18,890 nucleotides of DNA from a virus (IMGVR_UViG_3300017989_002952:1-18890), one strand, 5' to 3'; positions 2-18,890 are shown, counted from the first letter of the stretch. Numbers and translations: made by a program. The notes: a model not told the origin generated them from the sequence alone.

Positions 2-3000
2 GCATTTGTGAGATCTGGAAATACAATGTACTGTTACATTGATGGAGTGAGACAAGACGCTGGACAAACATTCACAGGCACAGTTTATAATAATTCTAGC
101 GAATACATGTACGTCGGTGCACTGTATTACAATAGTGCAACATCTGATCACCTCAAAGGTTATTTGGACGAACTTAGAATTTCAGTGGGAACCGATAGAG
201 GTTGGACAGGTTCTACTATTACAGTTCCGACTTCTCCTTATGATGAGTTGACTTGGAATGATTTTGTGGTTTCAAGTGTTTCTGCAGACTTGACAATCGG
301 TCATGTTGAGTTGCTTGCAACGACTACAACTGTACAATCAAACGTGGCAGACGCCACTCTAGAACTTGGTGAGGCTGCAGATCTTTCAGGAACGATATCT
401 TTTAGTTCAACAACTAGCTCATTTATGATTCTCGGCACTACAGAAGTATTGTCAGCTACGGTTAATATAACTTCAGAAGTGGATGCAGAGCTGGCAGCAG
501 GTTTGTTAGAATCTCTGTCTGCTACAATTAACGTTGTGTCTAATCTCACTGCAGCTGTATTAACAATTGGTATCGCAACGCCGTTGTCTGCAACTTGTGC
601 AGTCATCTCGAATACATTTGCTAACTTAGAACTTGGTGTTGACGTACCCCTGTCTGGAACCGTAGGCATAACAAGTGAAGTAGATGCGGAAATTGAACTT
701 GGTATTGTTGAGATCTTAGCATCTACAGGTCCAATCACATCGGTTGTGACAGATACAGATTTAACTCTTGGTATTACAGAGGATTTGACATCCACACCAG
801 GAATTACAACAGAAGTTGATGCATTTATTGACCTGGGTGTTTCTGAACAACTCTCTGCAACTACAAATGCAGTAGTGTTAACAACTGCCTCGATCGCGCT
901 TGGTGTGGTTGAGATTCTTGCTTCATCTGCAACCAACACATCTGTCACAGTTGGTTCTCTACAATTAGGACAGGGTGAAGATCTAGCAGGACCTTGTAAT
1001 ATCACAACAGAATGTGATGGTCTTCTCTCAATCGGTATTGCTGAGATCTTAGCATCAACATCTATTGGTACAGCTGTTGCTACTGCTAATTTGGGTTTTG
1101 GTGTAACAGAACCTCTAGAACATACGTTGTTTAGTGATGTGATCACAGGTGGTAATGATTCATATACAAAACTACTCCTCCACTTAGATGCTGACAGAGG
1201 AAATACGGGACACGCAATATACAACAATGGAAATGTAGTCCTTGATGCATCTACTATGAAGTTTGGTTCTGGTAGTTATGACTTTGATGGAAGTTCTTGT
1301 ATCGATGTTGTAGATCATGCTGACTGGGATTTTGCTTCAGGTAATTTTGTAATAGATGCATGGATCAAAACTGCTTCAGGATCTACAAGAACAATCGTTG
1401 GTCAGAATATCTCAGGTGGTGCTGACATATGGCACTGGAAATTGAAGAGTGATAATTCTCTCCAATTTGGTATAAGAGTAAGTAGTAGTTGGACCTTTAT
1501 CTTTAATCCAACGGGAACAACTGTTCCTAGTGATACATGGAGTCATGTAGCTGTTGTTAGAAGTGGTAATACATGGAACATGTACATTGATGGAACGAGA
1601 GTTGGACAAACTACATACTCTGGAAGTGTTCCAAATATCTCCGGACAACCCATGAGAATTGGTAGAGTATACGGTGAGCCAGACTTTGATGGTCAGATGG
1701 ACGAGTTCCGTATTTCTAAGGGAACTGATAGAGGTTGGACAGGAACATCATTTACTCCAGCAACTAGTGAATGGTCTTCAGACTCATATACAAAACTCTT
1801 GCTTCATATGAATGCTGATGACTCGGGTGAGAATCACAATGTTACATTATATGGTGATACAGCGCCTGCGCCAGGAAATACAAAATGGAACGGAGCATTC
1901 TACTTTGATGGGACTGGTGATTACATGACAGTTCCTGATAGTGATGACTGGGATTTATTTGGTGGAGATTTTGTTATAGATGCTCAACTAAATTTTGACG
2001 ACTACTCTAGTCATAGAGGAATTATAGGTCAGTATGTAGATGGTAACAACCAATGGGGTCTCTATTTACAATCAACTGGTGTTCTAGTTCTGTATGGAAT
2101 TAACGGCAGTACAAAATTCCATTATGAAGCATCATTTACAACTACAGGTTCATATGTGCATATAGCTATCGTAAAATCAGGTAGTAATTGCTACATGTTC
2201 GCAAATGGTTCTGCCCTCTCAGTTACCGCATATACGGCATTCAGCGCTATGAGCAATCTAGCTACTCCACTACAAATTGGAAGATATAGAACTTCTGATT
2301 ATATGAAGGGACATATTGACGAACTTCGTATTTCAAAAGGAACTGATAGAGGTTGGACAAGTAGCTTTACCGCACCACCCTCTCCATATGATGATTCAGA
2401 AGAGCAACAAGTAAGTTCTTGGTTAGTACAATCAGTTGTAGCTGGTGATATCACTCTTGGTGTTATTGAAGTGTTAACTGCTGAGTGTGTATGTTGGACT
2501 TCTATTTCTGGAAGTATAGCTCTTGGTGTTGTAGAAATTCTCGCATCTTCATCGACGACCGCATCTGTGGTTGATGCTGATCTTCATCTTGGTGAAGAGG
2601 TAGATGTGAGTGGTCCCTGTGCAGTTGTATCCAATGTAGCTGATACAACATTAACTCTCGGAACAACTGAGCTGCTTGCTTCAACAGCAGGATACGGAAA
2701 TGGTGCTCAAGCAGAATCTACAACAGCTGGTCTGTTATCAGTCGGTCTTGTTGAAATTCTTGCTGCGACATCTGTATACACTTCAATTGTACAAGCTGAT
2801 TTAATTATTGGTATTGATGAAGAATTAACTTCAACACCTCTAGCACAATCATCTACTAGTGGTGTATTGACTCTTGGTATTACAGAACCATTATCTGCTA
2901 CAAATGGAGTTGTTAGTGTCGTCAACGGTGACATAACTCTCGGCGCTGACGTTGTTGTTTCTTCTAGTGTTCTTGTACAAAGTGTTGCTAATGCAGGTCT

Positions 3001-5257
3001 TACACTTGGTGTATCTGAATCATTGTCAGCAACAGACAATGTTCAGAGCTCATTACAAGCAACTTTAGTTCTTGGTCTTACAGAAGTCTTAACAGCTACA
3101 ACCAATATTGTATCTGTAACCACTAGTGACCTTACATTGGGTATTGTTTCTGATTTGACAGTCACTTGTGTGGTGGTTTCAACAACTGCTGCAGACATAA
3201 CTCTTGGTATTACAGAGGTGTTATCATCTACAATTAATTGTCAAACTGCTGTGGATGGCGGCCCACTACTAACTGGTGGTGCAGAAGAATTGTCATGTCA
3301 AGCACAAGTAGTATCTAACATAACTGCTACCCTAACACTCGGTATTTCAACAGTGTTATCTGGTTCAACATCTGTTGCATCAAATGTTGTATCATTTATT
3401 AATCTCGGTGTTTCTGAACCACTTACAGCCACTTCAACACTAGCTTCTAGTGCAACTGGTGATGTAACTCTTGGTGTTGATGTTGTCTTCACTGGTGGAG
3501 CGAATGCAGTTTCATCGACTGCTGGGGATCTATTCATTGGAGCATTTGAAATAGTTACTGCTTCGTCCTCTACAACCTCAACAGTGACTGGTTTATTATC
3601 ACTTGGTATTGTTGAAGTACTTGCATCAACTGGTCCAATTACTTCTAGTGTAGTTGCGGATCTAACACTTGGTGTTACAGAACCACTGTCAGCAACTACT
3701 ACCTCTACATCTGCTGTGACCGGTGATTTGAGTCTTGGTGCTGCTACAGAACTCACTTCAACTTGTGATGTTGTATCAGTAACTGCTGGTTCTATTGCTA
3801 CAGGTATTGTTGAGGTTCTTGGTTCAACTGCTATAACTGCATCTGTGGTTGATGCTGAGTTAACGCTTGGTATTACTGAATCTCTTAGTCATACAGCGGC
3901 TGGTGGGTTAGATGAAGATACTGTATTGCTACTCCACATGGATGACACGGGTTTAACAGACTCATCACAATATAGTCACACTGTTACAAAGAATAATCAA
4001 GTTGATAGAAGTGGTGCACATAGCGTATTTGGTGGCTACAGTGCAATATTTGATGGAACTGGTGATTATTTAACAGTGGGTGACAGCGATGATTGGGCTT
4101 ATGGAACTGGTGAATTTGTAATTGATATGAGAATTCGTTTTACCACAGTTCCAAGTGGTGGTTCATGGTGTAATATCGTAACCCAGAAAGAATCTGGTGG
4201 TTGGACTAACTATTTCCAACTATACTATGGTGATTCACAGAAATTCGGAGTTGATATATATGTTGGTGGGACACGTCATATAAACTTGTGGACCAACTTT
4301 ACTCCATCTGCTGATACATGGTATCATTTAGCACTGGTTAGAGATGGTAATGATTTTAGAATTTATGTAGATGGTACAGATAGAACAAGAACGGACACAG
4401 GAACTTATCAATGGTCTGGTTCTATTCCTAATTATAATGCTGATCTTTGGATCGGGTCTATAAACGGCGGATCAACAGCAAATGATTTTGACGGCTACAT
4501 AGATGAGCTTAGAATTTCTAAGGGTACAGATAGAGGTTGGACAAGCAACTTTACTCCACCAACTCAAGCATACTCAGCCGGTTACGTTATTTCATCAGTT
4601 GTAACTGGTGAACTGACCCTTGGAATAGATGTTGTACTCACAGGAACTTCAACAATAGTTTCCACTGCATCTGCTGGTGTCCTTGCTACAGGTATAGTTG
4701 AGGTCTTGGGTTCTTCTAATACGACTGTGTCAGTTGTTTCTGGTGAATTACAAACAGGCACTACAGAGGTCCTCTCATCTTCAATTAGTCTTATAAGTGT
4801 TGTAACTGACGCCGCATTAATTATTGGTGTTAATGAATTGCTTGCTTCAACAGCAATAACAACAGCAGCAACAGCAGGTGAATTAACACTTGGGGTTGGT
4901 TACTATATCTCTGGAACAGCGGAATGTGTATGCTCAGTAGATGCTGTAATGTTCTTCGGTGTGACAGAACTCCTTGGTTCTTCAATAATTTCTGTATCTT
5001 ACACAGTAGCGGAACTCGACACAGGTCTTACAGAACTCCTTGCATCTACTGTTATAACAGCATCAGTAGTTGACGCATGGCTGTACAGAGGTTCAGAAGA
5101 AATATTGGCTGGTTCAACAGTCATGACCTCAATAGTAACAGGGGTAATCGAAATAACTGCACTTGCATTGACAAATGCTGGAGGTCACGGGACAGTAGAA
5201 CATAACGTTGGAAGGTTTTCAGGAGGAAATATTTCACCAGCTCCAGAGGTAGAATAG
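2..5257 (+). CDS. Giant virion fibre/adhesin-like protein with 22-aa repeats and four LamG/ConA-like domains (5' truncated)
   Basis: The frame is open to the left edge (AFVRSGNTMYCYIDG is mid-domain), so the track's GTG at 8 is not the real start; stop TAG at 5255-5257. Lectin-like domains at about 2-250, 1148-1780, 1781-2395 and 3911-4580 carry HVAVVRSG/HLALVRDG, YIDG and DELRISKGTDRGWT motifs typical of phage LamG-like domains. They are separated by LxLGxxExL repeats. Confidence 0.85.
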   Translation, partial: AFVRSGNTMYCYIDGVRQDAGQTFTGTVYNNSSEYMYVGALYYNSATSDHLKGYLDELRISVGTDRGWTGSTITVPTSPYDELTWNDFVVSSVSADLTIGHVELLATTTTVQSNVADATLELGEAADLSGTISFSSTTSSFMILGTTEVLSATVNITSEVDAELAAGLLESLSATINVVSNLTAAVLTIGIATPLSATCAVISNTFANLELGVDVPLSGTVGITSEVDAEIELGIVEILASTGPITSVVTDTDLTLGITEDLTSTPGITTEVDAFIDLGVSEQLSATTNAVVLTTASIALGVVEILASSATNTSVTVGSLQLGQGEDLAGPCNITTECDGLLSIGIAEILASTSIGTAVATANLGFGVTEPLEHTLFSDVITGGNDSYTKLLLHLDADRGNTGHAIYNNGNVVLDASTMKFGSGSYDFDGSSCIDVVDHADWDFASGNFVIDAWIKTASGSTRTIVGQNISGGADIWHWKLKSDNSLQFGIRVSSSWTFIFNPTGTTVPSDTWSHVAVVRSGNTWNMYIDGTRVGQTTYSGSVPNISGQPMRIGRVYGEPDFDGQMDEFRISKGTDRGWTGTSFTPATSEWSSDSYTKLLLHMNADDSGENHNVTLYGDTAPAPGNTKWNGAFYFDGTGDYMTVPDSDDWDLFGGDFVIDAQLNFDDYSSHRGIIGQYVDGNNQWGLYLQSTGVLVLYGINGSTKFHYEASFTTTGSYVHIAIVKSGSNCYMFANGSALSVTAYTAFSAMSNLATPLQIGRYRTSDYMKGHIDELRISKGTDRGWTSSFTAPPSPYDDSEEQQVSSWLVQSVVAGDITLGVIEVLTAECVCWTSISGSIALGVVEILASSSTTASVVDADLHLGEEVDVSGPCAVVSNVADTTLTLGTTELLASTAGYGNGAQAESTTAGLLSVGLVEILAATSVYTSIVQADLIIGIDEELTSTPLAQSSTSGVLTLGITEPLSATNGVVSVVNGDITLGADVVVSSSVLVQSVANAGLTLGVSESLSATDNVQSSLQATLVLGLTEVLTATTNIVSVTTSDLTLGIVSDLTVTCVVVSTTAADITLGITEVLSSTINCQTAVDGGPLLTGGAEELSCQAQVVSNITATLTLGISTVLSGSTSVASNVVSFINLGVSEPLTATSTLASSATGDVTLGVDVVFTGGANAVSSTAGDLFIGAFEIVTASSSTTSTVTGLLSLGIVEVLASTGPITSSVVADLTLGVTEPLSATTTSTSAVTGDLSLGAATELTSTCDVVSVTAGSIATGIVEVLGSTAITASVVDAELTLGITESLSHTAAGGLDEDTVLLLHMDDTGLTDSSQYSHTVTKNNQVDRSGAHSVFGGYSAIFDGTGDYLTVGDSDDWAYGTGEFVIDMRIRFTTVPSGGSWCNIVTQKESGGWTNYFQLYYGDSQKFGVDIYVGGTRHINLWTNFTPSADTWYHLALVRDGNDFRIYVDGTDRTRTDTGTYQWSGSIPNYNADLWIGSINGGSTANDFDGYIDELRISKGTDRGWTSNFTPPTQAYSAGYVISSVVTGELTLGIDVVLTGTSTIVSTASAGVLATGIVEVLGSSNTTVSVVSGELQTGTTEVLSSSISLISVVTDAALIIGVNELLASTAITTAATAGELTLGVGYYISGTAECVCSVDAVMFFGVTELLGSSIISVSYTVAELDTGLTELLASTVITASVVDAWLYRGSEEILAGSTVMTSIVTGVIEITALALTNAGGHGTVEHNVGRFSGGNISPAPEVE

Positions 5258-8200
5258 TATGGCGAGAGATGATGTAGTTTTTCGTAATCGACTAAACGTA
5301 AAATGGCATCGTGATTTTAGAGCTTACCTTGTAAAATCTGATGTCAATACTGCGGTCGGTGCGGAACTCACACTTGGTACTACAGAGGTGTTGGAGGCGA
5401 CAGCTAGTGGTGTAGCTGCGGCTGTCGCCAATCTCACCCTTGGAGTAATTCATCCCATCTCAGGCGGTGTTATTTTAGCGTCCTCGACTGATGCTACATT
5501 AACACTCGGAGTGGTTGAAGTGCTCTCTGCATCCACATCCTTTACGTCCGAAGTAGACGGTTTTATAACTCTTGGTGTTGCTGTCGATCTCTCTGGTACA
5601 GCTTCTGCTATAACAAACATAACTGCGAGTCTCGAGTTTGGTGTTGTTGAGCTCCTTGGTGCTTCATCTTCTTCTGCATCAACAGTGGCATCTGAATTGA
5701 CTTTGGGCGTCACAGAGTTAATGACAACAACATCAGCAACCTCTTCGGAAGCCGATGCTCTATTAACTATCGGTGTATTTGAGCTTCTTGGGTCGTCCTC
5801 GACCACATCATCTGCAGTTGGTGGCGAGTTAATCCTTGGTATTACTGAGGAATTATCTGTGTCCGCTGGTGCTGTAGCTGACGCATCTGCTGATTTGAGT
5901 CTTGGAGCTGATACAGATCTTGAAGCAACTCATTTAGTTCAATCAAGCGTTCAAGCTTCTCTTGCTCTTGGTGTTGTTGAAGTTCTCGGTTCTTCATCCT
6001 CAACTGCATCTGTTATTGATGCTGGTCTCACATTGGGTATTGACGAGGTTTTATCAGCCTCTTCTGGTAGCAATTCTAATGTATCTGCGGACTTAACGCT
6101 AGGCGCAGACCAAGCTCTTTCCTCAACTGCTGTTATTGTATCGACGACTACAGCCTTATTAAGCCTTGGTGTTGTTGAAGTTCTCGGTTCTGCTGTAGTC
6201 ACCTCTTCCACAGTTGACGCTACCCTCACTCTTGGTATTGACGAAGTATTGTCTGCGACCATTACAGCACAATCTTCAATTAGTGCATTCTTAATTCTTG
6301 GTATAACAGAACCTCTAAGCGCCTCTACCGACTCCTCAACGTCTGTAACTGCTGATTTGACCATTGGTCACGTTGAACTTCTTGCTTCAACTGCTATCTC
6401 GGCTTCGGTTGTTGATGCTGATTTGGAGCTTGGTGCAGATACGGCCATTGGTGGTGGAGCTGCTGCTGGATCAGTTGTAACTGCTAATCTGTTTATTGGT
6501 CTGGTAGAGTTGCTTGGAGGTTCTGCTATCTCGGTGTCCATTACAGATGCAGAATTAACTCTTGGTATTGTTGAAGAACTATCAGCAACAACAGACCCAG
6601 AAGTCCAGATAAGTGGTATTGCAATACTTGGTACAACTGAACCTCTGTTCTCCGGTGTCGTGATTACAAGTGAATCTGATGCTCTCTTGGCAGTAGGTGT
6701 TGTTGAAATACTTGGTTCAACTGCTGTCACTTCTAGTACTGTAACTGGTGGTCTTGACCTTGGAGTTGTGACTTCCCTCTCCGCAACGGCGATTATACAG
6801 TCGTTCGTACAAACCCCTGTCTTGGTATTGGGTGTTACAGAACAACTGTCAGGGACGTCGTTTAGCTCGTCTGCTGCGGACGCAACAATAAGCACTGGAG
6901 TTATAGAAGTCCTCACAGCAGGATCTGCATGGGTATCTACCACATCCGCATCTGATTTAACTCTTGGACAGGGAGAAGACCTTACAAGTTCTCCGTTAGT
7001 CCAATCAGATGCAAATGCTTCTCTGCTACTTGGTGTTGCTGAGGATTTAAGTGCTACAACAGGTGGAACAAGCAATGTGACTGGGGAATTAACACTTGGT
7101 ATTGCAGTTGTGCTCTCTGCAACTTGTGCAGTCCAATCACTTGTTGATATTGCTACCCTCACAACTGGTGAGCCAGAATATCTCACGTCCACGTGTAGTA
7201 TCCAATCATCAACATTTGCTTCACTACTACTTGGTCAGGATGAGGTATTTACAGGAACCTCGACGATCCAATCAGACATACAAGGTCTCCTAATTACTGG
7301 TATTCTTGAGATACTAGCATCCAGTTCAATCTCAAATTCAGTTACAGTTTCTGACCTGGTTATTGGAACCGACGAAGTGTTAGAATCTACTCATTTGGTT
7401 ACGTCAAGTGTTAGTGGCTTCTTAATTCTTGGTGTTGATGTTCCATTATCAGGAACTATAAATGTACAATCTGCAACTATTTCTGATGCTGCTCTTGGTA
7501 TCAACGAATATATGTGGGGCGACTCTATTATTCAATCAGCTACTACAGTTGATCTCACATTAGGACATACTGAGAATTTAAAATCATATTGTGATCTACA
7601 GACAAATTGTGGTGGTCTGTTATCAGTAGGTGTTGTTGAAATACTCGCCTCTACAAATATAACATCATCCGCAACGGCTGCTGATTTAACTATAGGTATT
7701 GAGCATCCAATATCTGCTACCTCAGATTCTACTGCGAGCATAACTGCAATTCTAACATTGGGTGTTGAAACTGCAATTTCTGCAACTTGTGATGTTGTAA
7801 GTTATGCAGTTGCTGAACCTCTATGGTTGGGTGTAAGTGAGCTTCTCGCATCAACAAACATAACATCTTCAATAACAACTGCTGATCTAGGTCTTGGTGA
7901 ACCAGAACCATTATCTGCTACATGTAATGTTATATGTGAAGTAGATGCATTCGTCAATCTTGGTGTTGTTGAAGACTTGTCACACTCGCTTCTTGTTCAA
8001 TCTTATGTTGCACCTGCTGACACAGTGGTTGGTGGTCCAGTTTCTGTTAGTGCAATTAATGATGTTGAGTCGTATGCCATCGCCGACCTTGTAACAGGAG
8101 ATGCAGAAGAACTCTCTGGTAGTTGTACTATTACATCCGAAGCAGATTGTGGCATTTTCGTTCTACTTCTGGGAAATGGTTCCTCAAACCCAAAAGTGTT

Positions 8201-10580
8201 GGTCTATCCTTCTGAATTAACTCTCGGACAGGGTGAACTATTCTCAACATGGAACCCAGTTTATTCAAATGTTGTTGCCGATCTGAGTCTTGGTGGTGTT
8301 ATTGAGCTTACATCGATGCTCAAATGTAACGCAGTCTCAACATTGTCTGCACCACAGCTTATTACTGGAGAAGTTTTAGATCTCAGTTCTCAAGTTGACT
8401 GTACATCAGTAGTTCTAAATACTCTGGACCTTACTGTTGGTAATCTTGGTACAGGACTTTCAGAATCTGAGTCATACGCATGGGCAGTTGGTCTCTGGAT
8501 TGGAACTGTCGAGCAACTCTCTGCAACGGCATATCCTTCACCAAATGTCGCAACGACTGGTGTGTTGATTAATGCTGTTGACCTTAGCAGCACAGTATCA
8601 GCTGTTCTGACCATTACACCACTACTAGGGGTTGGTCCGGCGTTGTCTGCTGGAGCGGACGCAGTCTCTTCAGTAACAGCAGATCTAACAATCGGCGTCA
8701 TTACTGAATGTTCGGCTACTTGTGTGGTTGATTCTACAGCAGTAGCTGATACATTCGTGTTTGGTGCCCCTCAACAACTCGAAGCTACTTGTGATGTTGA
8801 ATCAAACACTGTTGCGTTCTTATTCACTGGAGAATTCGAGTTAATCTCAGCCACTTGTGACGTTCAGTCAAATGTTGGTGGTGCTTTACTAACAAACGTC
8901 CAAGAACTTTCAGCGGATTGTCAAGTAGACTCAACAGCGGTCGCTACGACATTGATCATACCAGGTGTTGGAGAAGACCTAGAAGGCTCTGCTAATGCTG
9001 TATCTTATGTTACAGGTGAACAGCTAATTATAGATTACATTGGTTTGTATGCATCTACAGATGTGACTTCAAATGTAGTTGCCAACCTCGAAATTGAACC
9101 AGAATTATCTGCTACAATCCTTGTCCAAAGTTATATCCCAACGCCGTATTTATGGACAGGAGAATCAGAGACTCTCGCAGGCACAATTTTAGTTCAATCA
9201 GATATATCTGATTGTGATCTAATACTTGGTGTTCTTGAACTTCTTGCTAGCTCGATCCTTGCTCCAGCAAGTTTTCCACCACCAGAGTTGACAATAGGAC
9301 AGACAGAGGATCTCGAATCTACACACTTCATTGAATCAATAGTGAGTTCCAACCTCACACTTGGAGTTTCTGAGGTTCTGACCAGTACAATCAATGTACA
9401 ATCGAATGTAACTGCTGATCTTGAACTTGGTATTGTTAGAGTCCTTGAATCCACAATTAATCTACAGTCAGTTGTAACGAACACTATCGACCTTGACATC
9501 GGACAAGTCGAGGTTATGGAAGGTAGTTGTTTTATCGAGAGTGTTGTTGATGACGGCTTGCTTGTTGGAGAACTCGAAGACTTATCCGCCACTTGTGATT
9601 GTATCTCAACTATAACGGCTGATATGTATGCGGGCGCTGTAGAACATATTACTAGCACGGTGTCCATCGTGTCAGTTGTAGGACCTGTAGATGTCGATTT
9701 TGGACAACCAGAAGACCTCTCAGGAACTGGTGGAATTCAATCTGTCATTACTGCTGCATTCACGCTAGGTGTAAGTGAGGGGCTTTCAGCAACTCAGGGT
9801 ATATACTCGACTGCAACTGCGACAACTCTAGACATTGGTGTTGCTGAGGTCCTTACATCAACTTGTCATATACAATCATTTGCAGAAGCACATCCGACTT
9901 ACGGAGTTGAAGAATCATTATCTGCTACAATATCTGTATCGTCTGATGTAGCAGACTCAACACTTATTCTCGGTGTTGTTACAGAACTTACAGCCACTGC
10001 AATTGCTGATTGCTTTGTAATTGGTTACTTAACAAGAGGTTACATTGGTTCTGCTTCTATTTATAGTGATGTTGCGGCAGACTTAACTATTGGAGCCGTT
10101 GAGGATCTCACTGGTACAGTTGCTTGTGATTCTACAGCAGTTGCAACAACGCTTGTGGTTGGTGGAGCAGAAGAGCTTACTGCCACTTGTTTTATCACAA
10201 CACAAATAGTTGATCCAGATCTCACATTTGGTGTTCCAGAAGAGCTTACTGCCACGGCTGTTTGTGATTCAACTGCAGTTGTTGCCACGATTGGTATTGA
10301 ATTTGAATGCAGAGGTGCTGCGTCTTGTGCTTCTTCAGTAGATGCGGACCTCATTCTTGGTATTATTACAGATCTTACAGCTACTTGTCAGATAGATTCA
10401 ACTGCTGTAGCTACAACTATCGATATTCCAGGTGTCGCAGAGCCAATGGAAGGTTCTGCTGACGCAACCTCAAATGTTGCTGCAACTCTTACACTTGGTT
10501 ATGAATTGGAGCAGCTGTCTGGAACTTGTGATTGTACATGCACTATAATTAACGCAGCAATTGAGATTGGTGTTGCCTTA
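281..10580 (+). repeat. Coding tandem repeat of about 22-23 aa, consensus ADLTLG(I/V)xExL(S/A)(A/S)Txxx(x)SxV, shared by both giant ORFs
   Basis: Visible throughout both translations. The exact 27-mer cttggtgttgttgaagttctcggttct occurs at 5967-5993 and 6165-6191, 198 nt (3 x 22 aa) apart. Confidence 0.9.
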
Positions 10581-11159
10581 GGCAGACGAAGAACTACTTA
10601 TGATTTACAATATTGGTTCGCAGAATATGTAAGAACCAGTAGAATGAACAAGGCAGAATTTTCTTTTACCGCAAAAGACAGGAGACACTTTCAACAAAAA
10701 TCATTTATAGAGTTATTATTTAATGATGAATATTCGGAGACTTCATATAGATATCTATACAGGGAGGAAACTGAAAGACACTTGTGGCCGGTGCCTGTTA
10801 GAACAAGATTGATGATTCGCCCAAGTTCAGCACAATTCTTTGTGTGTGATAATGATAGTACAGCAGTTTGTGATGTGAATTTGTATGGGTTAGGATCTGA
10901 TGATATTGTTATGCTTGACAGACTTCTTGTTTATCGATTGGAGCCACACAATGCAACTCTTGTAGGCCTTGATTATGAATCCTTAACTTCGACCTTGTCC
11001 AAACTGATTTATATGTATTTAGAGCTTAAATTGCATAATGATTGGTCGAGGTATGATCATGAATCTTTGATTTCAGCATCAACTGATTTATTGGAACAGA
11101 TGTATGAATCATACTTACAAGAGAACATTTTTAGAACCGTCGCAGAAAGAGGGATTTAA
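5259..11159 (+). CDS. 1966-aa repeat fibre-like structural protein with a ~190-aa non-repetitive C-terminal domain
   Basis: ATG lies 1 nt after the upstream stop. About 1750 aa are the 22-aa repeat, followed by a globular, aromatic-rich domain from about 10581. It sits directly upstream of the baseplate-like gene. Confidence 0.8.
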   Translation: MARDDVVFRNRLNVKWHRDFRAYLVKSDVNTAVGAELTLGTTEVLEATASGVAAAVANLTLGVIHPISGGVILASSTDATLTLGVVEVLSASTSFTSEVDGFITLGVAVDLSGTASAITNITASLEFGVVELLGASSSSASTVASELTLGVTELMTTTSATSSEADALLTIGVFELLGSSSTTSSAVGGELILGITEELSVSAGAVADASADLSLGADTDLEATHLVQSSVQASLALGVVEVLGSSSSTASVIDAGLTLGIDEVLSASSGSNSNVSADLTLGADQALSSTAVIVSTTTALLSLGVVEVLGSAVVTSSTVDATLTLGIDEVLSATITAQSSISAFLILGITEPLSASTDSSTSVTADLTIGHVELLASTAISASVVDADLELGADTAIGGGAAAGSVVTANLFIGLVELLGGSAISVSITDAELTLGIVEELSATTDPEVQISGIAILGTTEPLFSGVVITSESDALLAVGVVEILGSTAVTSSTVTGGLDLGVVTSLSATAIIQSFVQTPVLVLGVTEQLSGTSFSSSAADATISTGVIEVLTAGSAWVSTTSASDLTLGQGEDLTSSPLVQSDANASLLLGVAEDLSATTGGTSNVTGELTLGIAVVLSATCAVQSLVDIATLTTGEPEYLTSTCSIQSSTFASLLLGQDEVFTGTSTIQSDIQGLLITGILEILASSSISNSVTVSDLVIGTDEVLESTHLVTSSVSGFLILGVDVPLSGTINVQSATISDAALGINEYMWGDSIIQSATTVDLTLGHTENLKSYCDLQTNCGGLLSVGVVEILASTNITSSATAADLTIGIEHPISATSDSTASITAILTLGVETAISATCDVVSYAVAEPLWLGVSELLASTNITSSITTADLGLGEPEPLSATCNVICEVDAFVNLGVVEDLSHSLLVQSYVAPADTVVGGPVSVSAINDVESYAIADLVTGDAEELSGSCTITSEADCGIFVLLLGNGSSNPKVLVYPSELTLGQGELFSTWNPVYSNVVADLSLGGVIELTSMLKCNAVSTLSAPQLITGEVLDLSSQVDCTSVVLNTLDLTVGNLGTGLSESESYAWAVGLWIGTVEQLSATAYPSPNVATTGVLINAVDLSSTVSAVLTITPLLGVGPALSAGADAVSSVTADLTIGVITECSATCVVDSTAVADTFVFGAPQQLEATCDVESNTVAFLFTGEFELISATCDVQSNVGGALLTNVQELSADCQVDSTAVATTLIIPGVGEDLEGSANAVSYVTGEQLIIDYIGLYASTDVTSNVVANLEIEPELSATILVQSYIPTPYLWTGESETLAGTILVQSDISDCDLILGVLELLASSILAPASFPPPELTIGQTEDLESTHFIESIVSSNLTLGVSEVLTSTINVQSNVTADLELGIVRVLESTINLQSVVTNTIDLDIGQVEVMEGSCFIESVVDDGLLVGELEDLSATCDCISTITADMYAGAVEHITSTVSIVSVVGPVDVDFGQPEDLSGTGGIQSVITAAFTLGVSEGLSATQGIYSTATATTLDIGVAEVLTSTCHIQSFAEAHPTYGVEESLSATISVSSDVADSTLILGVVTELTATAIADCFVIGYLTRGYIGSASIYSDVAADLTIGAVEDLTGTVACDSTAVATTLVVGGAEELTATCFITTQIVDPDLTFGVPEELTATAVCDSTAVVATIGIEFECRGAASCASSVDADLILGIITDLTATCQIDSTAVATTIDIPGVAEPMEGSADATSNVAATLTLGYELEQLSGTCDCTCTIINAAIEIGVALGRRRTTYDLQYWFAEYVRTSRMNKAEFSFTAKDRRHFQQKSFIELLFNDEYSETSYRYLYREETERHLWPVPVRTRLMIRPSSAQFFVCDNDSTAVCDVNLYGLGSDDIVMLDRLLVYRLEPHNATLVGLDYESLTSTLSKLIYMYLELKLHNDWSRYDHESLISASTDLLEQMYESYLQENIFRTVAERGI

Positions 11160-16539: not shown

Positions 16540-16573
16540 ACCGACTTTAAATCATTCTAAGATCTTAGTCGGT
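16540..16573 (+). promoter_or_regulatory. Possible 5' UTR stem-loop / operator
   Basis: accgact (16540-46) pairs with agtcggt (16567-73); a perfect 12-bp palindrome ctaagatcttag lies at 16557-68, just upstream of SD aaggagg. Confidence 0.35.
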
Positions 16574-16592
16574 GATCTTGAAGGAGGAAAAC

Positions 16593-17465
16593 ATGGTGTA
16601 CAGCAGTCAATTTGTCGCAGTAGTAAAGTGTAATGGTAAAGTCCTTCGTGAAAGAAGTGACGTAGTAACCCTTCCATTTGGTGCTGAATATTCCCTTCTT
16701 TTAAAGAATCTCTCACCACGTAAGGCGTCCGTCAATGTTAGTATTGATGGTCAGGACGTTCTGTACGGAAATTCTCTTATCATCGACCCAAATTCTGAGA
16801 CTGAATTAAAAGGTTTTCTTGATGGGATGACAGTCCGTCATCGCTTTAAGTTCATTCAGAAAACCAAACAAATTCAGCAACATAGAGGGGATAAACTTGA
16901 CGATGGAATAATTCGTATCCAATATGCTTTTGAAGAGCAACGAGTCATCAAGAGAAAGACTATCCTTCATGAGCATCACAAACATGAACACCACCATCAT
17001 CACCATCATAGAAAAACCCATTGGTATAATTATGACTACTACCCACCACTATTTTCTGATAGTAAAGGAGTGGGTTGGGATGATAGTGGGAATGTCTACG
17101 GTTCTTCTGATCAGCTCGTAGGTTCTTCGTTGACATGTAACTCTGGTGGCAGAGGTTTAGAAGGTGAAGTATCTAATTGCTTCTATTCAAATGTCTGTGA
17201 AGATTCTCTTGACGATGCTCCATTGGACGATGAAGGAATCACTGTCCAAGGATCCCAAACCAGACAAGATTTTCATTATGATACTATTGGTAAACTTGAG
17301 CCTTCTCAAGTTATTATTTTAAGACTCAGAGGTCAGACTTCAGGTGGAACAAAAGTTAGTAAACCTGTTACAGTCAAAACTAAATTTCAGTGTCCCACTT
17401 GTGGAACAAGGTCAGGTTCACGAGCCAGATTTTGCGCTCAATGTGGAACTAACTTAGAAATCTAA
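16593..17465 (+). CDS. Hypothetical protein (290 aa) with a beta-rich N-terminal domain, a His-rich tract and a C-terminal zinc ribbon
   Basis: ATG 16593 with SD aaggagg. HEHHKHEHHHHHHH at 16968-17009; CPTCG...CAQCG at 17391-17447. Confidence 0.85.
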   Translation: MVYSSQFVAVVKCNGKVLRERSDVVTLPFGAEYSLLLKNLSPRKASVNVSIDGQDVLYGNSLIIDPNSETELKGFLDGMTVRHRFKFIQKTKQIQQHRGDKLDDGIIRIQYAFEEQRVIKRKTILHEHHKHEHHHHHHHRKTHWYNYDYYPPLFSDSKGVGWDDSGNVYGSSDQLVGSSLTCNSGGRGLEGEVSNCFYSNVCEDSLDDAPLDDEGITVQGSQTRQDFHYDTIGKLEPSQVIILRLRGQTSGGTKVSKPVTVKTKFQCPTCGTRSGSRARFCAQCGTNLEI

Positions 17466-17497
17466 ACAAAAAATAAACAGTGATCCATTTCATGAGT

Positions 17498-17530
17498 TGT
17501 GGGGAGTCCTTTTGAGACTCCCCACATTTC
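17498..17530. terminator. Strong hairpin, probable bidirectional terminator
   Basis: Perfect 11-bp stem tgtggggagtc / gactccccaca with a 7-nt loop, followed by tttc on the + strand. It lies between the zinc-ribbon gene and the array. Confidence 0.75.
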
Positions 17531-17537
17531 GTCCGTA

Positions 17538-18426
17538 AATCCACAGTATTCCATAAATTTCTGTCGCTCAGGAACGCATTACACAAAACTCTAAGATTAA
17601 TTTGACCCCACAGAATCGTGTAAAACACTACGTTAGTGTTTCCCAACATATCCAATGTGTTCTTATCAATTTCTATTGGAAGTTTTACGGGACGGTTCTC
17701 TTTTTGACAAATCATCATAGGTTCGGATCTCATCGAGCAATAATGTCAACAAAATCTGATCCCACATCACCGCATCTAAGCGTATCGAATTCTATCGTAC
17801 TCCACGGTATCGTGAACAACATAATACCACAATAAACCCAAATCCGTCACAATGTTTGAAGACCCATGCGATAAGATTAACTAGTGGACGACTTGTAATC
17901 GCACATTATTAAATCGAACAGGTTGTGATGTCACCCTATCGAATGGTAAGGTGCATGTTATAATACCACATCACACTACACCACACTCAAACGAAACCAA
18001 CATTATCGAACAGAAACCAACATTATGGAACGGAAGCCGATGTTATAATATTACAAGATGGATGCAAAAGTACCAAACAGCATCGCACCTAGTTATATAG
18101 AATCTAATTCTAAAGAACCTTATTAAAAGTTCCACGCCACTACGCACTACGACAAGATAAATGTTCGAATCGCTTCGAATTCTACGAAACATCAAAATGG
18201 AACGGAGTTGATTGGTTCCAAATCGATATGACGTTTTCACACATTATAGAACTGAATAATACACGTTATAAGATACAACAGCATTCGTTGCTTTGCGACA
18301 GGACTTTATCGGATCTTTTCGATTCGTATCGAATTGGATGTTGCATATCACGAGGTAATATCGCAACGCACCAGACGATATTGTATTTCATTGGATTGTT
18401 TGTAATACGTTGTCGCTTTAGACTTG
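17538..18426 (-). repeat. Cryptic pentamer array (AY+NNN on +, NNN+RT on -) in 12 blocks; candidate VIPR-like guide-RNA array
   Basis: Of 173 registered first positions, 142 are A, 23 T, 8 G and 0 C; 17955-18055 has 21 consecutive A at 5-nt spacing. All 11 register shifts are +2 (a 7-nt step). The repeat is seen directly; strand and RNA function are inferred. Confidence 0.9.
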
Positions 18427-18439
18427 ACGTAAGACAGGA

Positions 18440-18487
18440 TGGTTGGGAGGAGACCCAACCACCCCCAGCTAGGCTCCGTCTAGCCTA
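18440..18487 (-). other. Two GC-rich hairpins forming a putative array leader / processing signal
   Basis: tggttggg (18440-47) / cccaacca (18454-61) and taggct (18470-75) / agccta (18482-87), between the stop of the 99-aa ORF and the first array unit. Confidence 0.6.
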
Positions 18488-18784
18488 ACAACAGCAGGCA
18501 GCGAGCTTCTTTCGAAGACGCTCCCGATTTTTGTTTTCTTTCTCTTTCAGGTCAAGTTTACGAGAGTTGTTATGAACTCTTCCAAGAGAAGCGACGGCAT
18601 TTGCTCTTGGAATAATTGCGTCATCGTCAACCTTCACTGTCTTCTTCAGCATACATGCTACAGGGTCTAAAATCTTTTGCATTTTGTAATAACCTCCCTT
18701 TCTTAGTCCGCGTCTCGCTTTTCTCAACCTAGAGATCGCTTTGTTTCTTTCTGGCGTTAAGCCACGAATACCATATTTCTTCAT
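18485..18784 (-). CDS. Very basic small protein (99 aa), probable nucleic-acid-binding accessory protein of the array locus
   Basis: 29 of 99 residues are K or R. ATG lies 1 nt after the upstream TAA; the sequence ends AACCC. Confidence 0.65.
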   Translation of the reverse strand: MKKYGIRGLTPERNKAISRLRKARRGLRKGGYYKMQKILDPVACMLKKTVKVDDDAIIPRANAVASLGRVHNNSRKLDLKEKENKNRERLRKKLAACCC

Positions 18785-18785
18785 A

Positions 18786-18890
18786 TTAAGCCGCTTTCAA
18801 TTTTTTGGATATCACCCCACTCTTAACATTTACAAGCTCGATATGTTCAGGTGGACAGTTATACATTCCGAAATTCGCTCCGCGCCTAGC
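18786..18890 (-). CDS. C-terminal 34 aa of a gene entering from the right edge; candidate RAMP/Cas7-like (Vipr-like) effector
   Basis: Not in the ORF track. The minus strand from 18890 reads ARRGANFGMYNCPPEHIELVNVKSGVISKKLKAA*, then TAA-t-ATG into the next gene. RRGANFGMY loosely resembles a RAMP G-rich-loop end (R...GxFGxF); the identity is inference only. Confidence 0.4.
   Translation of the reverse strand, partial: ARRGANFGMYNCPPEHIELVNVKSGVISKKLKAA

Follow-up and report, generated by a model that had tools for sequence, protein, structure and literature searches.

Two coupled genes on the minus strand of a viral DNA fragment, one encoding a protein with a predicted RAMP fold and the other a small, highly basic protein, appear, with a probability that we put at about 0.8, to constitute the protein half of a divergent VIPR-type system of a large uncultured marine or sediment phage. 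The VIPR systems were first described in 2026, as minimal readers of DNA that are guided by RNA and that may be ancestral to CRISPR effectors. They combine a lone RAMP, Vipr (about 20 kDa, with an RRM core, a G-loop and a thumb), with a vap accessory gene; most of them occur in phages, and their classification comprises seven types, with six families of vap (10.64898/2026.04.26.720920). The vrRNAs of these systems comprise 9-16 YNNGG units, with the variants NNNGG, YNNNG and NNNNG also mentioned (10.64898/2026.04.26.720920), and one Vipr protomer binds each unit and sequesters its constant bases (10.64898/2026.04.26.720927). In VIPR systems, a structured 3' tail, which is conserved, comes after each repeat tract, and the RNAs are expressed and co-purify with Vipr. 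The locus analyzed here is genuine and does not represent a categorically new kind of system; rather, its RAMP clade is divergent and its accessory family is undescribed. On the basis of the fold, the G-loop, the genomic context, the phage origin, the 5-nt array and the accessory gene, all of which were found, we classify the locus as VIPR-like in function and architecture.

Genomic context of the coupled genes

The window, that is, the entire stretch of 18,890 nucleotides that was analyzed, is the start of a virus record of 105,615 bases (C1) that is estimated to be about 26% complete, and the two coupled genes lie at its right-hand edge (Table 1). That the locus is encoded by a virus is indicated by the classification of the record and by the adjoining tail sheath and virion genes; the phage gene neighbours are those for the tail sheath, virion proteins, an HNH endonuclease and giant Laminin-G proteins. 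At the other end of the locus, a convergent zinc-ribbon gene (16572-17465, plus strand) faces the end of the array, with a hairpin between the two. The beginning of the window (2-11159, plus strand) is occupied by two very large adjacent ORFs, of at least 1751 aa and of 1966 aa, the first of which contains four Laminin_G_3 (concanavalin-like) repeats and the second of which has no family match; these probably encode fibre or adhesin-type virion proteins.

The 105.6-kb contig, which represents about 26% of the estimated genome, contains no match to the PF03787 and PF01867 profiles, and no Cas1, CRISPR array or CRISPR-like spaced repeats were detected in it; the RAMP family is represented by a single copy. 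Phage records in GenBank yielded neither a DNA nor a protein match to the locus, and a pattern scan of IMG/VR yielded no confirmed relatives. The sequencing runs listed as carrying the DNA of this locus include no RNA run; they are sediment and seawater metagenomes, which may be the source samples. Two near-identical contigs (L002 and L003) are 100% identical to the locus over 4.5-5 kb and thus offer no microdiversity for a test of selection.

Table 1. Features of the predicted operon and of the adjacent array (window positions; the prefix C1 denotes positions in the complete record)
Feature	Position	Strand	Remarks
Full RAMP gene	C1:18786-19835	-	349 aa (P0003); full open frame C1:18786-19841
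vipr-like RAMP gene, 3' end (last 34 codons and TAA)	18786..18890	-	translation ARRGANFGMYNCPPEHIELVNVKSGVISKKLKAA, then stop
99-aa accessory gene (P0001), vap-like by position	18485..18784	-	ORF, 29.3% K+R, pI 10.5
Internal SD-like sequence AAGGGAGG	18700-18693	-	precedes in-frame Met35 ATG 18682-18680
Two adjacent hairpins, operon end	18436..18489	-	z -4.0
Candidate vrRNA array, non-coding, unit U-NNN-R on gene strand	17540..18435	-	5-nt periodicity blocks
12-bp GC-rich hairpin, far array end	17498..17526	.	z -4.5; 0/200 shuffles as stable

The RAMP gene and its family

The original prediction pointed to a truncated gene at the edge of the window, with a product ending in RRGANFGMY...KLKAA, and proposed that the sequence to the right be retrieved. 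The gene end is present on the minus strand, and the contig does continue beyond the edge, where the remainder of the gene, which encodes 349 aa in full, is found; its likely start is the ATG at 19835, located 7 nt after the ribosome-binding site AAAGGAGG. An exhaustive profile search against 1.84 billion representative sequences delineated a family of 45 representatives, mostly of 240-290 aa, that share the conserved blocks PLNVF.RD.Q, P.IGAH..GAFRD, HLRK.V.V.PHHIF, GQQP..V.GF..YEVI.PP and, at the C-terminus, GLGGRR.AGYG.W. The RRGANFG motif that had been noted from the window belongs to the last, C-terminal of these blocks, a glycine-rich loop (GAIGARRGANFG, residues 312-323) that begins just outside the window and ends inside it. 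Across 42 sequences, R318 and G323 do not vary, and G312 and G315 are almost without variation; elsewhere in the family, there is an invariant aspartate (D164), and a histidine (H226) and a glutamine (Q259) are nearly invariant.

Searches of Pfam, NCBIfam, PADLOC, PHROGs and PDB sequences (the latter with phmmer and with the profile) gave no match for the 349-aa protein, and the sequence searches yielded no signal apart from coiled-coil noise, which affects the N-terminal helices, and a match to Csm4 that is not significant (E 0.93). These N-terminal helices form a Lys-rich hairpin (residues 7-62; C1:19640-19835), with 28.6% K/R over the first 70 residues of the protein. The hairpin is present in about a quarter of the family members, being longer and more basic in L011, and could be an added DNA-binding or oligomerisation arm.

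Structure prediction for the RAMP protein

In an AlphaFold2 model of the 349-aa protein, built on a 42-row alignment (pLDDT 86.3, pTM 0.74), the helical hairpin at the N-terminus spans residues 7-62, and residues 73-343 form a core of mixed alpha/beta structure. When the core was compared with 48,161 PDB representatives using an aligner independent of Foldseek, all the top-ranked matches were Cas7-type CRISPR RAMPs, with no Vipr chain among the PDB matches. The best match is Csm3 (6ae2_B; Z 12.5, 166 aligned residues, rmsd 3.6), followed by 9g9a_D (Z 11.9), 6s6b_I (11.8), Csf2 (7jhy_e, 11.6) and the type VII Cas7 (8yhd_G, 11.3), with further Csm, Cmr, type IV and type I-D chains at lower ranks; Cmr4, like Csf2 and the type VII Cas7, is matched at Z 11-12, and the Z-scores range from 12.5 to 9. 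The remaining non-RAMP matches align only the N-terminal helices, to generic helical hairpins. The Foldseek comparison with Cas7/RAMP structures that the original prediction had proposed agrees, in that all 39 PDB matches at E < 1e-3 are chains of CRISPR effector complexes (probability 1.00).

Among predicted structures, the best matches in BFVD are viral proteins of 194-252 aa (E 7e-11 to 6e-7), one of which is named 'Cas system-associated RAMP' and two of which come from archaeal viruses, and the nearest ESM Atlas clusters consist of proteins of 209-232 aa that are 88-98% viral. The glycine-rich loop follows the last helix (298-308) and precedes the last strand (332-335), which is the canonical position of the RAMP G-loop. 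As for the thumb, a hairpin that in Vipr flips the constant bases, the model contains beta-hairpins at residues 158-178, 244-259 and 269-286. Judging by the model, the 349-aa protein is a stand-alone RAMP with a Cas7-like fold. The RAMP identity, which had initially depended on a single weak motif, is thus backed by the fold, and the motif itself turns out to be the conserved G-loop.

The small basic protein

The coupling of the two genes that was originally described is evident at the junction (...GCT TAA T ATG AAG...), where the RAMP stop codon and the start codon of the accessory gene are separated by one T, and the fraction of lysine and arginine given for the small protein, 29%, matches the measured value (Table 1). 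Three parts can be distinguished in the protein: the N-terminal peptide, which is rich in arginine (residues 1-34, 38% K/R), the centre, and a helix at the C-terminus that is rich in lysine and arginine. No match was found in Pfam, NCBIfam, PADLOC, PHROG or PDB sequences, and a search with the single sequence retrieved only the protein itself, called as a 65-aa form (P0007). Pairwise comparison with P0009 gave an E-value of 5e-4, and relatives align at 22-30% identity. The homologues share an N-terminal motif YG[IL]xG..E.N....RLR, a central A.A..G/AN and a basic C-terminal helix with EK(R/K)R, and a search with a profile of eight homologues retrieved 22 small proteins, none of which has a name or a Pfam domain. 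Between homologues, pN is lower than pS both in the N-terminal peptide and in the rest of the protein (for L007 compared with L026, 0.38/0.70 in the peptide and 0.18/0.88 in the rest), which indicates that the whole 99-aa frame behaves as coding. At all eight loci compared (the window, L007, L011, L014, L015, L016, L024 and L026), an SD-like run precedes a conserved in-frame internal ATG by 7-12 nt, so that the short, 65-aa isoform may be produced as well.

Given that the small gene overlaps the RAMP gene in relatives, we also considered a programmed frameshift that would join the 3' end of the RAMP gene to the small ORF; this was rejected because of the clean TAA-t-ATG junction in the window and the separate SD-like sites of the small ORFs.

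The AlphaFold2 model of the 99-aa protein is poor (pLDDT 57). According to a weak model, the protein is all-helical, and the structural neighbours that the ESM Atlas gives for its own weak model of the protein are generic helical bundles and are uninformative. The predicted complex of the RAMP with the small protein has a median score of 0.25 (mark 0.32), which counts neither for nor against binding. The small proteins comprise a new, unnamed family of vap-like accessories, for which we infer a role from charge, helicity and exclusive linkage: our best guess is a nucleic-acid- or filament-binding cofactor.

Hairpins and the 5-nt periodic array

The operon ends with two adjacent hairpins. Hairpin 1 (18489-18468) has a stem of 8 bp, and hairpin 2 (18465-18436) has a 12-bp GC-rich stem and no U-tract after it; the pair has a minimum free energy of -33.6 kcal/mol, and none of 200 shuffled sequences folds as well. 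The stop codon of the 99-aa ORF was originally placed inside the first hairpin of a leader. The UAG (18487-18485) is indeed located in the 5' arm of hairpin 1; the hairpin pair, however, is not conserved in most relatives (not in L007, L011, L014 or L026), which leaves the designation 'leader hairpin' unsupported as a feature of the family.

Downstream of the hairpins is a region of about 0.9 kb that contains no credible genes, and in which no Rfam family or tRNA was found. The local period-5 power in this region is 1.16, compared with a shuffle mean of 0.74 (sd 0.07), that is, a z-score of about 6; the respective z-scores for relatives are about 10 in L007 and L011, 7.0 in L014, 9.1 in L024, 8.0 in L026 and a weaker 3.2 in L015. 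The signal is absent in coding controls (z about 0) and in the 1.1 kb of non-coding DNA upstream of the RAMP gene (C1:19842-20995; power 0.67). Autocorrelation along the gene strand, which involves no assumptions on the unit, gives correlations of +0.23 (lag 5) and +0.21 (lag 10) for T in the window array, and +0.23 to +0.28 at lag 5, with about the same at lag 10, across six loci; a purine is favoured at +4. The period is carried by T, which together with the purine four bases on gives the unit U-NNN-R, with one strongly constant base (U), a weaker purine and three free bases, and the register blocks agree with this unit. The periodicity comes in blocks of about 8-16 units separated by phase breaks, and the region is a candidate array of vrRNAs that would be transcribed from the same strand as the two genes.

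The transcription unit of the array and that of the convergent gene probably both terminate at the hairpin that separates them. In this region, sigma-70 promoter-like sites are not enriched, and no intrinsic terminator pattern was found. Within the array, TGTGGTATTATAACAT and TGTAATATTATAACAT repeat about 85 nt apart (17955-17970 and 18040-18055, minus strand), and GATTATAATACCATCGG, which is similar to the array repeats, occurs in the distant relative L026 (4340-4460); the repeated TGTGGTATTATAACAT/TGTAATATTATAACAT motifs are candidates for per-guide promoters or 5' handles. A 94-aa ORF (17449-17733, minus strand) extends from the distal part of the array across the terminal hairpin into the 3' end of the convergent gene; it was called (as 89 aa) in one assembly and not in another, has no family match and is probably spurious.

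Conservation of the gene order in relatives

A homologue of the small gene directly follows a RAMP-family gene in independent loci from metagenomes, namely L004/L011 (117 aa), L007 (105 aa), L014 (called as 66 aa, or 91 aa if the conserved extension at the N-terminus is included), L015 (97 aa), L016/L017 (110-113 aa), L024/L025 and L026, often overlapping the 3' end of the RAMP gene; in L018, the start of the small gene is truncated. The exception is L019, where the small gene (73 aa) is located about 630 nt downstream. The same association emerges when the search starts from the accessory side: two profile hits from the longest contigs, P0070 and P0061, are each immediately preceded by a gene for a 284-aa protein that matches the RAMP family profile with a probability of 100% (hhalign; E about 1e-64). 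Thus, whichever of the two genes is used as the starting point, they are adjacent at every locus that is long enough to judge, with the spacing of about 630 nt in L019.

Non-coding DNA that shows the 5-nt period (U-NNN-R) comes next after the small gene in seven of eight loci and is 0.5-1.2 kb long. The order of effector, accessory protein and RNA array, which had been taken to fit an RNA-guided ribonucleoprotein, is accordingly borne out by the predicted RAMP fold and by the conserved three-part synteny: the upstream gene encodes a RAMP fold and not some unrelated known protein, and 5-nt periodic DNA accompanies the homologues of the small protein. VIPR, the published kind of system that the locus resembles, was not named in the original prediction.

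Two relatives have additional features. In L016 (4331-4420 and 2700-3000), a canonical terminator consisting of a hairpin and a U-tract (z -3.35) follows the small gene, and a short T-NNN-A tract is located directly upstream of the RAMP gene; since this periodic tract is upstream and not downstream, the position of the array is not fixed in the family. In L024, a gene for an Acb2/Tad1 hairpin domain protein (a family of anti-CBASS/Thoeris sponges; 4957-5223) is found 3.6 kb downstream of the RAMP-accessory module, a hint that the module sits among counter-defence genes.

Alternative explanations and a proposed mechanism

A fold match alone cannot tell function, and RAMPs include Cas6-type endoribonucleases; the RAMP might, like Cas6 or Cas5, work on its own in binding or processing RNA, cutting or chaperoning the non-coding transcripts next to it, and not be a filament-forming effector that presents guides; the small protein would then serve as its RNA chaperone. 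In favour of this reading, the conserved D164, H226 and Q259 could be catalytic, and strong hairpins flank the array. However, the best structural matches are backbone Cas7-type subunits, with no Cas6 among the top-ranked identified chains, and the strict 5-nt period, which spans tens of units at several distant loci, is not predicted by a cleavage site whereas it is what the binding of one protomer per unit predicts, so we regard this explanation as improbable. We are about equally sceptical of the possibility that the 99-aa ORF has no dedicated role alongside the RAMP, either because only the 65-aa form is made or because the product is a general nucleic-acid-binding or regulatory protein that happens to share the transcript. 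The 65-aa gene call on record, the internal SD-like sequence before Met35 in all eight loci, the lack of similarity to Vap1 or any family in the searches made and the poor structural model are all compatible with that possibility; the N-terminal peptide that the short form would lack is, nevertheless, conserved in sequence, with pN below pS, and of the 22 unnamed profile hits, both that could be examined for context are directly behind a RAMP-family gene, in an arrangement that often involves overlap. Such tight, exclusive linkage at roughly 25-35% protein identity argues for a shared function.

The 5-nt stretch could also be thought of as a DNA element, such as phased binding sites or bent DNA, that is recognized by the small protein and to which the RAMP is unrelated. 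A period of five nucleotides equals half a turn of the helix, the small protein is strongly basic, and sigma-70-type promoters are not enriched in the region. Still, the partner gene encodes an RNA-binding RAMP fold, the period is interrupted by phase breaks into blocks of about 8-16 units, like separate guides, and the same layout in phage SUSP1 yields vrRNAs that have been detected experimentally (bioRxiv 10.64898/2026.04.26.720920); we consider a DNA element very improbable, more so than either of the preceding alternatives.

The reading that we prefer is, then, a VIPR-type system, and the following mechanism can be proposed for it. The 349-aa protein would be the analogue of Vipr, with an RRM core, a canonical G-loop and a lineage-specific N-terminal hairpin. 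By analogy with SUSP1 Vipr, its protomers may polymerise along the small RNAs of the array, one per 5-nt unit, holding the constant bases U and R and presenting the variable bases to the target nucleic acid; in this way, a competing genetic element would be silenced in a sequence-specific manner. The 99-aa protein would be the system's own accessory factor, produced by coupled translation and possibly also from the internal start, and its Arg/Lys-rich helices would most likely bind the guide RNA or the target DNA, or else the RAMP filament.

A more specific version of this scheme, which we consider rather doubtful, although less so than the alternatives above, is that the locus represents a distinct VIPR type. 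In such a type, the RAMP would hold only one or two constant bases and present three, for example reading whole codons instead of reading two bases and skipping one; it would depend on an obligate Arg-rich partner unrelated to Vap1; and this partner would exist as two nested isoforms, with the peptide specific to the long one tethering it to the guide RNA or the target DNA.

Implications

The locus extends VIPR to a lineage of large marine or sediment phages. It is set apart by a RAMP that has no detectable sequence similarity to the studied type and is larger, by three free bases per unit, and by nested starts in the genes of a new accessory family. Should the reading of the three-base unit depart from the 2+1 rule that has been published, programmable recognition codes would span a wider range, and the small partner could show what accessory factors contribute to such systems. 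In terms of annotation, a fold and a likely role can be suggested for two 'hypothetical' families, which comprise 45 RAMP representatives and about 20 small accessory proteins.

Comparison with VIPR and CRISPR systems

Compared with the backbone subunits of CRISPR types III, IV and VII (Csm3, Cmr4, Csf2 and Cas7), the RAMP described here is similar in fold, with Z-scores of 9-12.5 over about 145-185 aligned residues and with a co-located G-loop in the predicted structure. It differs from them in that sequence identity is only 8-16%, in that there is no match to the Pfam RAMPs and there are no cas partners, CRISPR array or Cas1, and in the unit length, which is 5 nt and not 6 nt.

The closest parallel in organization is phage SUSP1 (type II), in which YNNGG tracts (KT454805, 29170-29229 and 27802-27949) flank the genes for a 195-aa and a 146-aa protein on the same strand, and in which both Vipr and Vap1 are needed for resistance to its satellite (10.64898/2026.10.15.759431). 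As in SUSP1, a lone RAMP with a C-terminal G-loop is encoded by a phage in the absence of a CRISPR array or cas genes, and a small accessory gene is located directly downstream on the same strand, followed by a long non-coding run of tandem 5-nt units with constant and variable positions, which gives the order vipr - vap - array. In contrast to SUSP1, no periodic tract of the same type lies upstream. The RAMP is also longer, with 349 aa (240-290 aa being the family norm) compared with 195 aa, and carries a helical insertion and the N-terminal Lys-rich hairpin; the protein is 1.3-1.8 times longer than the published Viprs (about 20 kDa). The accessory protein, in contrast, is shorter, with 99 aa (all-helical in the weak model) compared with the 146 aa of Vap1.

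At the level of sequence, the RAMPs of different types lack similarity to one another. Comparison of the RAMP family profile with a four-member profile of Viprs from SUSP1 and from Gordonia, Mycobacterium and Vibrio phages, all of type II, one of the seven published types, gave a probability of 1.5% (hhalign; E 0.034), and the small protein, whether as a single sequence or as a profile, matched Vap1 and the proteins in the Vap1 position with a probability of 0.1%; the 99-aa protein is thus not Vap1 and can be called vap-like by virtue of its position.

The G-loop of SUSP1 Vipr has the sequence G-V-G-D-W-R, where D177 and W178 read the two guanines, whereas the G-loop here is G-x-x-G-(G/A)-R-R, a difference that would fit a different constant part. 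The unit itself differs, U-NNN-R having three free bases compared with the two free and three constant bases of the SUSP1 unit YNNGG. Non-canonical VIPR clusters have been obtained in language-model screens, with the units GAC/NN, CAC/NN, WGT/NN and TGH/NN, and all 21 Evo-PIN clusters retain a fixed trinucleotide (10.64898/2026.10.21.760802). In common with the non-canonical arrays, the locus analyzed here combines a 5-nt period, in which the constant part is not GGY, with an adjacent Vipr-like fold. The texts consulted describe the YNNNG class without naming its loci, its protein families or any accessory genes; among the listed non-canonical VIPR forms, it is this class to which U-NNN-R is closest.
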